Source of the DNA: a virus
Taxonomy: Duplodnaviria; Caudoviricetes
Reading direction: 5' to 3' (one strand)
DNA length: 64,000 nt
IMG/VR virus record: IMGVR_UViG_3300029959_000704
Span: 1 to 64,000 of that record
In this document: positions 6,001 through 33,227 of the stretch, piece after piece
Numbering within the stretch: position 1 is the first letter of the stretch
Layout of the letters: each line of letters begins with the position of its first letter
Made by a program: the position numbers and the translations under genes
Notes under the pieces: model-generated
The model's input: only the letters and a program-made list of their open reading frames with translations
Databases searched by the model: none
Told to the model about the DNA's origin: nothing

Positions 6001-9000
6001 GAACTCCAAGAAGTAAATAAGTTAGTTTCTACACCATTAGTAGCTCTTTTAAAGTATTGTACTCCTATTTGAGTAATACCTACAGCAATATCTACATTTC
6101 CATAAAATGCAAATGACCATAAACCACCAGGAAAGTCCTCTACATCAACTCCTGTTGGATAAAGGTAAGTAGCTACCAATTTATCTCCATCAGTAACTTG
6201 TACTGCTGTAGAAACATTAGTAGTAGTTGAGTCTGCATTATAACTAAGAGTATAATATCCTCCTATATCAGAAGGAATACTTGAGAAATACAAGTTATTA
6301 GCAAAACCTCCTACAGGTGGTTCCATCAATTGGAATGTATTATCATCTCTTAAAAATCTACCCTCAGTTGTTTCTACAAAAGCAAGAGCATTCTGTTTAG
6401 CATTCCAAGTTGAAATATATGTAGGAGTAAGAAATTTTCTATCAACTGTTTCAAGAACTCTATCTGCACCAAGACTTCCTTGAATAAAACTAAAGTCAAT
6501 TAATCCATTAGTAAATTCTCCAAGAGCATTGCTATAATAAAGTAATTGTTTATCTGCTCTTGCAATAAGAGTTACATCTGATAAATCATTTAAACTTCCT
6601 ACAGTACCGGCCTCTGGATCTACTACAGAATAACCATTCTCTAATGCATAAATACTTACTGCATTATTAGGAATACCTGCATAAGCTACTTTAGGAATTA
6701 AAATAGCTCCCATTGACAAGATACCATTTCCAGTAAGATGTCCTACATCAACTAGATCACCTGACACATTGGCAGTTCCATCAAAAGATTTACCCCATAA
6801 TGTTCTAGGAGTAAATAATTTAGTTGCTGACAATACATTTTTTAAACTATCAGCTGTATTATCAACATTAGATAATCCTACATCTGATTTAGTAAGAGTG
6901 ACGGCTCCAATTCTCCCATTAACAGAAGTTACTGCATCAGTATTATCTACTTTTGCCCATCCTGCAGCTCCATTAGAAATTAACCAGTCTCCTACTTTAA
7001 GTTCTATTCCAGAAACTGTTATATCTGCTTGTGCTATAAAATAGTATCCAGAATAATCTGTAGCTGATAGAGTATTAATATTTAATCCATTAAGAGCAGC
7101 TACTGGAGATGTTATAAGTCCATTGACATCGAAAGTGCCTCCCCATTTTACTTGACCTAAAATAGAGTCTGGTATAAATGCATAATCAATTTTTCCTGTA
7201 AGATTTAAACCTACATATCCACCTGGTTGATTTTTATTAGCTGCATCTTCTTTAGCATTCCAAAATGCTATTTGAGAATCACTTACAAATCTGGTTGTAT
7301 TAGTAGTAGTTATCCTAGATGAATCCAGATTACCTGAAATCATATTGAATAGTAATGGTCCATTTACATAAGCAGAGTTAATAAGATTATAATAAAGTAT
7401 ATCATTTTGATTTGGAAGTACATTAATTACATCTAATAAATCATTAAGTACTGTAACAGCAGTTCCTCCACCAGGCTCTTCTAAACTATATCCATTTTCT
7501 AACGCAAATAACCCAACCTCATTGTTTAGTAAATCTACCGGTAGTTCTTTTGGAATTGATAAAGATTTAGATCTTAATACTCTAGCTTTCCAATCTACAG
7601 TAAATAAATTAGAATTAGCATCATGCCAGTATTTGCTAGCGTCTATTCCACCAAGTTTCTCAGAGTCAGCTGCTAAATTTACTTTTACATTTTTAATTGT
7701 ATTTTCATCATAATTCCATTTAGCATTCCATTCAGCTATTTGAGTAATAGTTACAAACCTCCTTAAGTCATTAGTAGCTACTAAATCAGCACTTAAAGAA
7801 TCCCCAAACATGTTAAAACTCAATGTTTTATTTATCCATTTTTGAGTAGCAAATACATATAAAAGAGCTTGATTTTCTAGAGGAGTATCTATTAATACAT
7901 CTTCTAAACCAATAAGAGTTCCAGAACTTCCTTGTGGATCTACTAATGTGTAGCCATTCTCTGTAGCATAAATTGCAACCTCATTGTTTTCTAATGCTAT
8001 AGGTTCATCTTTAGGAATTAGTAATACATTTGATTTTAATCTATCCGCAGTTAAATCTAAAGGGGTTCCATTATCAAGACCGAATTTTGGATGATATTTT
8101 GATAATGCTTCAGTCTTTGTAAGGTAATTCGACATATTTAAATTACCTAAGAGAGTATCTACTTCTCCTTTATTATAAATAGATTCATTAGAGAATATAC
8201 CATTACGATACATAATAGTTTGTCCATTCAACCAAGTAAGAGCACTTATATCAGATAAGTCTGCAAATTCTGAAATTGAAGTTTCCGGATCAACTATCGA
8301 ATATCCATTTTCTTTAGCAAATATAGCTACTCCAGCATCAGGAGGAATAAATTCTCCTGTTGGAATAAACAATACTTTACTATATAATCTTCTAGCTCTA
8401 AAATCAATCAAATCACTACCCCCATAAGGATGATAATTTGTTGATAATCCTAAAAATAAAGTATCTACTTGATCCTTAGTGTATGCTGGTTTATTAACGA
8501 AGTTAAGACCTTCTTTAAATAAACTATCTCCATTAGCTTGATTGGCTAATAATACATCGTCTAAATCATCTAAAATTGATACACCCCCAGCACCTGGGTC
8601 TTCAAGAGTGTAACCATTTTCCAGAGCGTATATACCTACTTCATTATTTGCAATAGTAGGAACTGTCTTTGGTAAAAGTAAATTTACTGATTTGAGAGTT
8701 TTAGCTGTTAAATCAAGATTAATATTACCTTTATATGGATGAAATGTTCCTGAAATAGATAATATTGTATTTTTATATTTTTGAGTAGCTTTATCCCATA
8801 TGATAGCAGCTCCATCTTCCGGATCTGCTGTAAGAGCTTCATCAAGCTCTCTCATTTTTAATTGTACATTAGCTACTCCATTTTGATCCATTACTAAAGT
8901 AGAACCTAATTTAATACCTCCGAAAGAGGTAGAAGTAGCTGCTGGTATATATTTAGGTAAGATTACTCCAAAAGCATCAGCTCCTGGTAATTTAATAGTC

Positions 9001-20728: not shown

Positions 20729-20803
20729 TGGACATAGTTCAACAAGTAGAACGCAACCATGAGTGTATGTGTTGAAATATAGGTTCGAATCCTAATTGTC
20801 CAG
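20729..20803 (+). ncRNA. tRNA-like element 1 with non-canonical anticodon arm
   Basis: Acceptor TGGACA/TGTCCA, D arm GTTC/GAAC, T arm TAGG-TTCGAAT-CCTA. The CAAC/GTTG stem encloses 13 nt rather than 7; no CCA. Confidence 0.65.
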
Positions 20804-25215: not shown

Positions 25216-25288
25216 TGAGAGATGGTGTATTGGTGCACGGTTTAAATATTTATTTATACAGGAGAGGGTTCGAATCCCTCTCTCTTTA
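25216..25288 (+). ncRNA. tRNA-like element 2 with non-canonical anticodon arm
   Basis: Acceptor GAGAGA/TCTCTT, D stem GTGT/GCAC with GG loop, perfect T arm GAGGG-TTCGAAT-CCCTC. The 20-nt AT-rich anticodon arm has no 7-nt loop; no CCA. Confidence 0.7.
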
Positions 25289-27454: not shown

Positions 27455-28440
27455 TAATCCGGGAAAATCGGATGGAGGTGTGGGTTAAAACCACCATAGA
27501 ATACAGAAGTCCATTGTCGTATTTAGATATTATATGGAATAGAATATCTCTAGTTTATAATTTAGGCTAAACATTGATGCCTCGGTAAATACCCATGCAA
27601 AATACTTATCGTGTACACGAAAAAGATACAAGTATTTACCCAAAGATACTAATCCTGAATTGACAGGAGATTAAAGGCAAACGTGATATGAAGTATTAGA
27701 GAAATGGGGTTACTATCAAGAGAATGTAATCCCGCCAGGCTACCCATCTGGTCTATCAGTAGATAATTCTATTCGCCTATAAGAAATTAATGGAGTAATC
27801 CTAGATGTGTTGTTGTTAGGTTAACCTAACCAGTTAGAAATAGCTGCCCTTGAGAAAGGAAGAAGCCCTTTAGTAGAATGTTTCCTCCCCATAGTACAAC
27901 TACTACAACACAAATGAGTTCTCAGCGAAAAAGATGATTAAGAATCGGTTATCTAAAGTTTAGGCTAAAGAGCCATACATCATATAATCATCTGACCCTA
28001 CTCTTACTACCTACCCTATGATTAGGGTTGTAGAGAGAAGTAAGATAAGAGGGTGCTAATAGATAGAGATGCTATAATCTTTGAATCAAGACTTGAAAAA
28101 TGGTTCCGCCTCAGTATTCACGGCGAAATGGAATACCTTGGGTCAAAGAAAACTACACATTTTCTCCAAGTAGTGTTGATGCTTTTAATAGGGGATGCCC
28201 AACAGGTTTTGTATAAGTAGAAAACCGATATGACTACTCACTTGTAATCTCAAAGTGGGGGGAGAATAAGTTGCTTGAAATGATACACAGCAGCTAAAAA
28301 TCCTGGACCGGTATACAAACACCGGTATATGAAATGACTCTAATAGTTTGCCAGGTGTAAAAGGAGTAAAGTGGCTATAAAATAGTTTACAAAGTGCCAT
28401 ACTTAGGGGTGAAATGAAAATACAACTAGTCCCCTTTTTT
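27455..28440 (+). ncRNA. Large (~1 kb) structured ncRNA candidate, GOLLD-like by size and context
   Basis: About 1 kb with no credible ORF, many helices and GNRA tetraloops, a 3' pseudoknot and a terminal stem plus T run; lies among tRNA-like genes. The family assignment is unverified. Confidence 0.7.
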
Positions 28441-29394: not shown

Positions 29395-29556
29395 GGTCAG
29401 GTGCCGGAGTGGTTCAACGGAGGTGTGGATAAAGCCAATAAGGATGGGGTTGTGAATAATATAATAGTAATCTCCTAGCTCAAGGCAAAAACTACCTAGT
29501 ACTCTAACAGCTAGACGTAATAGTACTACACAGGTTCAAATCCTGGACTGGCCCCA
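29395..29556 (+). ncRNA. tRNA-like element 3 with ~108 nt between the D and T arms
   Basis: Acceptor GGTCAG/CTGGCC, D arm CCG-GAGTGGTTCAA-CGG, T arm CAGG-TTCAAAT-CCTG; ends in CCA. Confidence 0.7.
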
Positions 29557-29581
29557 AATACTAATTTTAATTATTTTGAAA

Positions 29582-29803
29582 ATGAAAATTACAGAAATTA
29601 ACAAAAAGACTTTGATTAAAGCCGAATTACCAGATGGAGTTTATATTGGTAAATGGTGTGGATATCAGATTGAAGTTGAGCATGAAAAAGAAACATACTT
29701 TCTTAATACTGAACAAGGTGTTAAAGGTATTAATATTGGTGTTGCAGTAGAAGTTATAAACGGAGAAGCTACTTTTGAACTCCTGAGAAACTACACCAGT
29801 TAA
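29582..29803 (+). CDS. Hypothetical protein
   Basis: Start moved to ATG 29582; 73 aa. Confidence 0.65.
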   Translation: MKITEINKKTLIKAELPDGVYIGKWCGYQIEVEHEKETYFLNTEQGVKGINIGVAVEVINGEATFELLRNYTS

Positions 29804-29929: not shown

Positions 29930-30056
29930 AGTCAGGTGGCGAATTGGTAGAGCACCACATTAGATAATATTGGGGAGAAATGCCTATAAACATTATGATA
30001 ATAAGATGCATATAAAACATAATGATGGCTTGCAGGTTCAACTCCTGTCCTGACTA
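29930..30056 (+). ncRNA. tRNA-like element 4 with ~77 nt between the D and T arms
   Basis: Perfect 7-bp acceptor AGTCAGG/CCTGACT, Leu-like D loop AATTGGTAGA, T arm GCAGG-TTCAACT-CCTGT, discriminator A. Confidence 0.75.
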
Positions 30057-30080: not shown

Positions 30081-30275
30081 ATGTCAAAAACTATCGCTGC
30101 TACAGGAGGAACTTCATTAGGAACTCTCCTTACTGTTGTATTTATTATTTTAAAATTGACCAATGTAATTAACTGGTCATGGTGGTGGGTATTATCACCA
30201 ATTTGGATATCTTTTAGTTTATCAATTCTTATAATTATAGGAATTATATGGTTTATTCACAGATTTCAAAAATAA
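30081..30275 (+). CDS. Small membrane protein (WSWWWV motif)
   Basis: Two transmembrane helices; LKLTNVINWSWWWVLSPIWI is a common phage small-membrane pattern. Confidence 0.8.
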   Translation: MSKTIAATGGTSLGTLLTVVFIILKLTNVINWSWWWVLSPIWISFSLSILIIIGIIWFIHRFQK

Positions 30276-30281
30276 AATCTT

Positions 30282-30440
30282 ATGAGAACAGTTTTATTTA
30301 TAGGTATGTTAGCTATTGCTAATGCTATTTCTCCTGATGCACCAGATCTCGTATTAAAAGCAGATTTATATATGGTTATCACTATAATAGCATTATTTAG
30401 TGATTTAGCAGAACTTTATTACAAAAGCCGTAAAAAATAA
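30282..30440 (+). CDS. Small membrane protein (52 aa, not in ORF track)
   Basis: MRTVLFIGMLAIANAISPD...YYKSRKK; its stop overlaps the next ATG. Confidence 0.6.
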   Translation: MRTVLFIGMLAIANAISPDAPDLVLKADLYMVITIIALFSDLAELYYKSRKK

Positions 30441-31111
30441 TGGAAAGATTACATCTTACTATTAATATGAATACTGGTGCTAAGTTATTTTTCACTTCAG
30501 ATTTACATTTAGGTCATAATAATATAATTTCATTTTGTCAGCGTCCTTTTAAAGATGTAGAAATTATGAATGAAGCTTTAATTGCTAATTGGAACGAAGT
30601 CGTGGCTCCTGGAGATATTGTATTTGCATTAGGAGATATATTTTGGAATCATAATACAAAATTTATGAAAGAAGTTTATGCGAGATTAAATGGTACTATT
30701 TATTTTATACCAGGAAATCATGACTCAAATGATGCATATAAACAAAAGTTTCCTAATGTAACTGTATTAAGTGATGTTGTAACTTTATTTCTTATACTTC
30801 ATGATGAAATAGAAGAAGTAACTTATAATTATCAAATACAATTAAGTCATATTCCATTAATGACTTGGCCTCAAAGAATTAAAAGAAATTGCTTTCATTT
30901 ACATGGGCATGTTCATACTATGTTAGTAGGACATAATACAGGTTGTGATGCAAATATTCCTAAATGGCCTAATCAATACGATATCGGAGTAGACTTTAAT
31001 AATTATGCTCCAATTGAAATTAGAGATATCTTAGCAAAATTAAATCTATCACCTGGAAGCTCTGTAAAAGAATTATCAAAAGAAGTTCTTGAAAGAAACT
31101 TATCAGAGTAA
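30440..31111 (+). CDS. Calcineurin-like metallophosphoesterase
   Basis: SDLHLGH, GD, GNHD, H and HGHVH motifs. Confidence 0.9.
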   Translation: MERLHLTINMNTGAKLFFTSDLHLGHNNIISFCQRPFKDVEIMNEALIANWNEVVAPGDIVFALGDIFWNHNTKFMKEVYARLNGTIYFIPGNHDSNDAYKQKFPNVTVLSDVVTLFLILHDEIEEVTYNYQIQLSHIPLMTWPQRIKRNCFHLHGHVHTMLVGHNTGCDANIPKWPNQYDIGVDFNNYAPIEIRDILAKLNLSPGSSVKELSKEVLERNLSE

Positions 31112-31117
31112 ATGTAT

Positions 31118-31206
31118 GCCTCAGTGGTGGAATAGGTAGACACGAAGGACTTAAAATCCTTTTCTCAGCAATGAGAGTGCAGGTTCAATTCCTGTTTGAG
31201 GTACCA
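31118..31206 (+). tRNA. tRNA-Leu (TAA)
   Basis: Acceptor GCCTCAG/TTGAGGT, anticodon arm AAGGA-CTTAAAA-TCCTT, long variable arm, T loop TTCAATT, discriminator A, CCA. Confidence 0.92.
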
Positions 31207-32802: not shown

Positions 32803-33227
32803 TGGTAATACTTGTAGATTTTGATGGGACTTGTGTTACTCACGAGTTTCCAAATGTGGGAGAAGAGATTGGAGCAGCCCCAATTCTTAAGGAACTTGTT
32901 AAAAATGGTCATAAAATAGTATTATTTACTATGAGATGTGATCACGACTTTACCCCTCAAGGTAATCAACCTGAAAATGACTATCCAGCCAGTACCTATT
33001 TAACTGATGCAGTAAATTGGTTCAAAAAACATAATATATCCCTTCACGGGCTTAATACTAATCCAGGCCAAGAGAAATGGACAAGTAGTCCCAAAGCTTA
33101 CGGAGATTTAATCATTGATGATACAGCCCTTGGTTGCCCATTATTATATGATAAAAAAATATCTTCAAGACCTTTTGTTAATTGGGCTGAAGTACATAAT
33201 ATACTTCAAGAAAGAAAAATTCTTTAA
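32802..33227 (+). CDS. HAD-family hydrolase (cap-less)
   Basis: DFDGT motif I, FT-R motif II, K...IIDD motifs III and IV. Confidence 0.85.
   Translation: MVILVDFDGTCVTHEFPNVGEEIGAAPILKELVKNGHKIVLFTMRCDHDFTPQGNQPENDYPASTYLTDAVNWFKKHNISLHGLNTNPGQEKWTSSPKAYGDLIIDDTALGCPLLYDKKISSRPFVNWAEVHNILQERKIL

Follow-up and report, generated by a model that had tools for sequence, protein, structure and literature searches.

What kind of gene, if any, keeps the ends and the elbow of a leucine tRNA and carries something else in the place of its anticodon? This question is raised by positions 29930-30056 (plus strand) of a 64-kb window, which is the whole stretch of DNA analyzed here and covers the opening 64 kb of a phage record in IMG/VR (81,291 bp, 78% complete, GC content about 31-32%). 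A sequence-only reading of the window had described a tRNA-like element with a perfect acceptor stem and a 77-nt insert at this position, and had suggested that the encoded RNA might be chargeable yet unable to decode, or else that the insert is an intron.

The source phage encodes a family A DNA polymerase, a DnaB-type helicase, a ribonucleotide reductase, ThyX, a P22-like portal protein and a 2144-aa ORF. Its terminase is 50-56% identical to the terminases of cr108_1, IAS virus and Bacteroides phage DAC15 (Crassvirales, Steigviridae, Asinivirinae), and based on this identity the phage is classified as crAss-like and its host is presumably a member of the Bacteroidota. A search with neighboring proteins recovered no close relative of the phage. 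The element is located in a 277-nt gap between two co-oriented ORFs, and neither a promoter nor a terminator belonging to the element could be convincingly identified. The real tRNA-Leu(UAA) gene of the phage follows 1.1 kb downstream, separated from the element by, among others, a metallophosphoesterase gene (Table 1). A CCA-adding enzyme was not found in the phage.

Table 1. Coordinates of the element, its parts and its surroundings in the 64-kb window (R1: family covariance model described in the text).
Feature	Position	Strand	Description or basis
tRNA-length element	20729-20803	+	good T arm, aberrant anticodon region; Rfam score 31.8 bits
tRNA-length element	25216-25288	+	good T arm, aberrant anticodon region; Rfam score 32.4 bits; called Asn(att) by ARAGORN
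Module GTGTTGT ... CCCTTGAGAAAGG ... ACAACAC	27807-27911	+	
Second tRNA-shaped shell	29395-29554	+	GGTCAGG acceptor, Ser/Tyr-like D arm, ~110-nt insert
Upstream ORF	29576-29803	+	
U at -1	29929	+	just 5' of the predicted RNase P cut; read from sequence
Acceptor stem, 5' strand AGTCAGG	29930-29936	+	7/7 Watson-Crick pairs with 30049-30055
U8, G9, leucine-type D arm with G18G19, position 26	29937-29954	+	D arm at 29939-29953; R1 and Rfam alignments
Insert	29955-30031	+	77 nt; replaces anticodon and variable arms
Helix closing the insert	29955-29962/30020-30028	+	8 pairs and one bulged A
Alternative internal hairpin CATTATG/CATAATG	29991-29997/30018-30024	+	
T arm GCAGG/TTCAACT/CCTGT	30032-30048	+	5-bp stem; sequence, R1 alignment
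Acceptor stem, 3' strand CCTGACT, and discriminator A73	30049-30056	+	CCTGACT at 30049-30055, A73 at 30056
3' trailer CAA	30057-30059	+	CCA not encoded
Downstream ORF	30081-30275	+	
Metallophosphoesterase (phrog_547)	30440-31111	+	between element and tRNA-Leu
tRNA-Leu(UAA)	31118-31203		

Anatomy of the element

It is confirmed that the element combines the ends and the elbow of a tRNA-Leu with a 77-nt insert that replaces the anticodon and variable arms. The seven acceptor pairs read from the sequence are all present, as are the leucine-type D loop with its G18G19 and the discriminator A, and the T arm, which had been called nearly identical to that of the tRNA-Leu(UAA) downstream, agrees with it in 16 of 17 bases. 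U8 and A14 are also found. Both structures that had been drawn for the insert, a closing stem and an alternative internal hairpin, could be reproduced (Table 1). The 50-nt frame has a GC content of ~54% (hand count) within a genome of 31% GC, which argues that it has resisted AT drift. The D arm is less well preserved. Its G18G19 are kept, its stem consists of two Watson-Crick pairs plus a tandem G.A/A.G where the family has a 3-bp stem, and R1 and Rfam alignments reveal one missing base and a changed 3' strand relative to the consensus of the family described below.

No 5-bp stem with a 7-nt loop exists between the D and T arms. This agrees with the earlier idea of a tRNA-Leu-like RNA unable to decode, and the same loss defines the family to which the element belongs. 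The Rfam tRNA model (RF00005) aligns to the element from end to end (model positions 1-71), treating the anticodon arm as a 65-nt local insertion, and yields 28.2 bits compared with a gathering score of 29 (E-value 0.031 in 20 kb, 5e-4 in 300 nt). If a canonical tRNA is defined by the gathering score together with a 5-bp anticodon stem and 7-nt loop, the element is not one. ARAGORN did not call it at default settings and gave it a score of 95.3 once the threshold was lowered and introns were allowed. The fold of the whole RNA is no better in energy than that of shuffled sequences (z about -0.2), and folds compatible with a cloverleaf come within 1-3 kcal/mol of the lowest energy.

The insert sits at the usual site of anticodon-loop introns and is closed by a helix, as would be expected if an intron-bearing tRNA gene were spliced to give a working tRNA. 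We nevertheless consider splicing extremely improbable. Group I and group II introns are longer than the 77 nt of the insert, no Rfam intron model, group I included, matches it, and neither the splicing endonuclease (PF01974) nor RtcB (PF01139) was found in the phage record, whose host is of bacterial type. Further, removal of the insert leaves no anticodon loop, and alignments of the family contain no conserved anticodon-arm exons on either side of the inserts. The proposal of an intron was thus not borne out.

A family of tRNA-framed RNAs in phages

A pattern search of IMG/VR for the T loop followed by CCTGACT-A, in which the T stem was left free, returned at least 120 phage contigs. Among the matches listed, contigs often carry 2-6 copies, and most of these matches have an AGTCAGG partner 67-190 nt upstream. 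Counted over all fetched loci and allowing up to two differences from the AGTCAGG heptamer, 221 unique elements were identified in the collected loci. The exact acceptor pair AGTCAGG/CCTGACT together with A73 is present in 148 unique elements of these loci. The T stem strand CCTGT is found in more than 90% of elements and the D arm is of the classical tRNA-Leu type. The T arm of element 29930-30056 conforms to the family pattern RCAGG/TTCRANT/CCTGT, and its particular variant (GCAGG/TTCAACT/CCTGT) was tallied in two unique family elements, itself included.

A covariance model, R1, was built from 45 members with a structure comprising only the acceptor, D and T pairs. It scores the element at 59.7 bits (E-value 1.2e-11 in the 64-kb window), compared with 35.9 bits for the tRNA-Leu and 34.7 bits for the tRNA-Met of the same phage. 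Because of this difference, the element is a true member of the AGTCAGG-frame family and not a chance match. The sequence-only reading had named a lack of homologs that retain the scaffold as grounds for giving up its proposal; hundreds of homologs retain it.

In sequence, the frame hardly changes between very different phages. Since the proteins of the source phage are almost never shared with the other frame-bearing loci, this conservation extends over very distant phages. Judged by sequence, the family is phage-specific. A 24-mer from the 3' part of the frame was found in 18 of 185,579 species genomes, all 18 being MAG contigs, half of which are labeled Bacteroidota, and none of 50,697 GenBank phage records contained both halves of the frame. 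Genes annotated as tRNA-Leu gave the best GenBank matches to the consensus 5' half alone, in confirmation of a D arm of leucine type. Changes in the acceptor stem are compensatory (AGCCAAG/CTTGGCT, TGTAAGG/CCTTACA, AGTTAGA/TCTAACT and AGCAAGG/CCTTGCT), and the helix is therefore selected at the RNA level. The real tRNA-Leu(UAA) genes of family-bearing phages carry related acceptor stems, which points to a phage tRNA-Leu as the likely ancestor of the frame. A minority of AGTCAGG frames have apparently normal anticodon arms for Lys (UUU), Ile or Ser (loci L011, L067, L114 and L034), so that one top half serves both decoding tRNAs and non-decoding RNAs. Rfam has no dedicated family for these RNAs, and a full-text literature search found no published description of the AGTCAGG-frame family. 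Standard tRNA finders miss many of its members or call them aberrant tRNAs, and they are overlooked in annotation; the family explains many of the "odd tRNA" or "pseudo-tRNA" calls in phage contigs.

No gene was consistently found as a conserved partner beside the frames, the commonest neighbor protein being a terminase (13 of 136 loci). Phosphoesterases related to the metallophosphoesterase downstream of the element occur near frames in 13 of 136 loci and fall into two clusters. Conservation at the level of sequence suggests a partner that reads sequence, and together with the leucine identity elements and the lack of a consistently adjacent phage-encoded partner gene it would suit a decoy or sponge, the top half of which mimics tRNA-Leu to occupy a host factor without feeding translation. 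Candidate targets would be LeuRS, a leucyl-tRNA-using transferase, a tRNA-modifying enzyme or a defence toxin attacking acceptor ends. However, such a role leaves the conservation and covariation of some inserts unexplained, and a single copy makes a weak sponge. We regard it as quite unlikely for this element.

An R1 scan of the 81-kb record detected no second family member, and the same scan of three reference Crassvirales genomes returned only ordinary tRNAs. An ortholog of the exact element was not found; its 3' 25-mer matched only a different, 67-nt member, located on an IMG/VR contig (L002, identical to metagenome contig L141) and on metagenome contig L142. Element 29930-30056 is a lone, diverged and partly eroded family copy in a Crassvirales genome. 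Could it be a decaying relic, that is, a former family member or duplicated tRNA-Leu gene fallen into disuse in this crAss-like phage? Its single copy, its weakened D stem and its absence from the three reference Crassvirales would fit, as would an insert that is below the genome in GC and has neither fold signal nor homolog. On the other hand, in a genome with a strong AT bias the acceptor has kept all seven of its pairs and the T stem all five, the T loop, G18G19, A73, the U at -1 and the C at +1 are likewise intact, and on R1 the element scores above the working tRNAs of the phage. Decay is hence a reading to which we assign a low probability.

Additional RNA features were observed in the source phage and in other family loci. 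A second tRNA-shaped shell lies a short distance upstream of the element (Table 1). With only 24.2 bits on R1, and with a 3' 23-mer that has no exact match in IMG/VR, it is placed outside the AGTCAGG family. Two tRNA-length elements with aberrant anticodon regions bring the total in this one phage to four anticodon-less shells of different frames. The window further contains a module bounded by GTGTTGT and ACAACAC, and the same module also follows a frame element on the minus strand of metagenome contig L142 (at about 3400-3330). Its core, CCYTGAGAAAG, is present in 10 of 140 loci, in 9 of them within 300 nt of an AGTCAGG frame on the same strand.

Flanks and predicted maturation

Family members resemble the ordinary tRNAs of the same phage loci in their flanks. 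Of 194 family members, 152 have a T at -1, as have 162 of 241 ordinary tRNAs, and CAA is the commonest trailer (87 of 194 and 108 of 241, respectively). About 95% of family members have a C at +1 and only 2% encode CCA. Element 29930-30056 has a U at -1, a C at +1 and no encoded CCA, all three being common to the family and ordinary tRNAs. This common signature is the best available indirect evidence that the element may mature through the tRNA pathway.

Inserts of the family and of element 29930-30056

Family inserts are 17-174 nt long (median 52). No common motif could be found among them, and 179 of the 221 are singletons as judged by blastn. They are weakly structured (mean z -0.96), and their GC content is on average 4.6% above that of their own locus. 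In the few groups of inserts that can be aligned, hairpins are kept by compensatory changes, and members of one such group differ by a clean 41-nt hairpin insertion. Because these hairpins covary, at least some inserts are functional RNA. A general closing helix is not enriched across family inserts, though element 29930-30056 has one.

Two candidate roles of the inserts were rejected. A role as guide or antisense RNAs finds no backing, exact antisense matches within ~7 kb being no better to their own locus than to unrelated ones. A peptide-coding or tmRNA-like role was discarded as well, small ATG frames being present in 16.7% of family inserts and in 18.4% of shuffled ones. Rfam models detected only tRNAs, tmRNA and one group I intron in 18 family-rich loci, with no non-tRNA match inside an insert. 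Contig L017 carries a group I intron match (7609-7837, 97.8 bits) that abuts a tmRNA match (7832-8193), together spanning 7609-8193 on the minus strand, and contig L022 has a tmRNA match at 1088-1533.

The insert of element 29930-30056 lies at the unpromising end of the family range. It is AT-rich, with a GC content of 0.29 versus 0.32 for the genome, and shows no fold signal over its 77 nt (z about -0.15 compared with shuffles). No homolog or complement was found in the window or in ~140 loci; the matches within the window are 11-12 nt long and at chance level. Its closing helix, which is matched by 2.1% of shuffled inserts and thus modestly unusual, competes with the internal hairpin. The insert also contains an 11-codon ATG frame. 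In this copy the insert would represent a passenger arm whose role may be minimal.

An insert that resembles filler would be expected if the frame were only RNA punctuation, namely a cleavage signal for RNase P and RNase Z between the genes of a polycistronic early or middle transcript, with the excised RNA left jobless and its middle free to drift. The four tRNA-shaped shells and the tRNA-Leu lie within a few to ~130 nt of co-oriented ORFs, and the absence of a common motif, the many singletons and the weak folding of family inserts fit this explanation as well. Any acceptor would serve RNase P, however, and yet the sequence of the frame hardly varies across very different phages. Moreover, hairpins in some inserts are kept by compensatory change, and in some other phages family elements sit within long tRNA arrays, where more cut sites add nothing. 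We therefore view punctuation alone as unlikely.

Proposed function

The reading we favor, with modest confidence, takes element 29930-30056 to be a genuine gene whose RNA product is small, shaped like a tRNA and unable to decode. The element, a diverged member in single copy of a large family specific to phages, would undergo tRNA-type processing. It would be co-transcribed with its tightly packed plus-strand neighbors. Host RNase P would then cleave 5' of A1 and an RNase Z-type activity 3' of A73, and the host CCA-adding enzyme would finish the 3' end. The intact acceptor/T minihelix and D/T elbow are predicted to confer tRNA-like stability on the product of ~130 nt, which may persist as a tRNA-shaped RNA unable to read codons. 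The frame would represent the selected working part, a handle for processing, stability and recognition. The single copy, the eroded D stem, the AT-rich insert without fold signal and the absence from three Crassvirales count against a real gene and fit a decaying copy or an insert that is mere filler.

The anticodon arm is dispensable for leucylation by LeuRS, for which A73, the major identity element, and the U8-A14, G18-U55 and G19-C56 core are critical (PMC2377443). The nucleotides of this leucine identity set are all found in the sequence of the element, its D stem being weak and its insert bulky. It is plausible that the element is chargeable by LeuRS, and host LeuRS may leucylate the RNA, the anticodon arm being unnecessary. 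However, the core that LeuRS recognizes could be disturbed by the weakness of the D stem and by the bulk of the insert. If family RNAs are processed, and perhaps charged, like tRNAs while carrying other cargo, they would provide a phage-wide route to small RNAs.

More tentatively, we hypothesize that phages, including freshwater Bacteroidota phages, this crAss-like phage and perhaps T5, make use of an unchanging tRNA-Leu top half as a natural chassis for expression. Small RNAs placed in the anticodon position would be excised, CCA-tailed and stabilized by the tRNA machinery of the host, and maybe leucylated, and inserts would be exchangeable modules (sponges, aptamers or anti-defence decoys) with fast turnover in an arms race. 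This is a possibility that we put forward with considerable reservation.

Comparison with known systems

RNA1 and RNA2 of phage T5 are the closest known relatives. RNA1 (T5s03, NC_005859 30501-30644, 144 nt) and RNA2 (T5s06, 32959-33083, 125 nt) are located among the T5 tRNA genes and annotated as "tRNA-like stable RNA with unknown functions". In architecture and size they agree with the element, having an acceptor helix, a canonical T arm and ~70-80 nt in place of the anticodon arm. If the T5 type is defined by acceptor, D and T arms around a non-anticodon domain of 70-80 nt near phage tRNA genes, element 29930-30056 belongs to it. RNA1 aligns to R1 end to end with 28.4 bits and has a leucine-type D arm, an insert of ~80 nt and the T loop TTCAACT, which is also that of the element. 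For RNA2, a full-length alignment of 22.3 bits was obtained when the filters were switched off; the printed alignment reached 20.1 bits and has gaps in the acceptor columns. The RNA2 sequence nevertheless forms seven acceptor pairs, and its T arm is the same as the GCAGG-type variant of the family. Both T5 RNAs differ from the family in their acceptor sequences and, in the case of RNA1, in having a U as discriminator, and no likeness between the inserts is evident by eye. Since neither scores higher on R1 than ordinary T5 tRNAs, both fall outside the AGTCAGG sequence family. The host of T5 is Escherichia and not a member of the Bacteroidota.

RNA C and RNA D of phage T4 are processed together with tRNAs. 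We know of no indication that a complete D/T elbow around an exchangeable middle is retained in them. They are small stable RNAs, also named species 1 and 2, that are encoded with tRNA genes and whose function is still unknown (PMC9697503).

Compared with class II bacterial and phage tRNA-Leu (RF00005), the element is alike in its D arm, T arm, A73 and U8 and differs in having neither an anticodon stem-loop nor a regular variable arm. tmRNA likewise joins a tRNA-like acceptor/T domain to non-tRNA sequence between the two halves and can be charged in the absence of an anticodon. The element is far smaller, is of leucine-type rather than alanine-type identity and has no tag reading frame. No Rfam tmRNA match reached the gathering score in the window, where a single sub-threshold match (10.2 bits) lies outside the element.

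In the engineered "tRNA scaffold" of Ponchon and Dardel, a cargo RNA reportedly replaces the anticodon arm and is processed and stabilized by the enzymes that act on tRNAs. That scaffold is man-made, whereas the arrangement seen here is natural and phage-borne. If the chassis hypothesis is true, these RNAs would foreshadow the engineered scaffold in nature and make up a new class of regulatory RNA in phages. Stable, tRNA-linked RNAs without known function have been on record in T5 and T4 for decades. Element 29930-30056 links a crAss-like phage to hundreds of tRNA-framed RNAs that have one constant frame and many different middles. This combination, in which selection keeps the frame, offers a comparative handle on the old question posed by T4 and T5.
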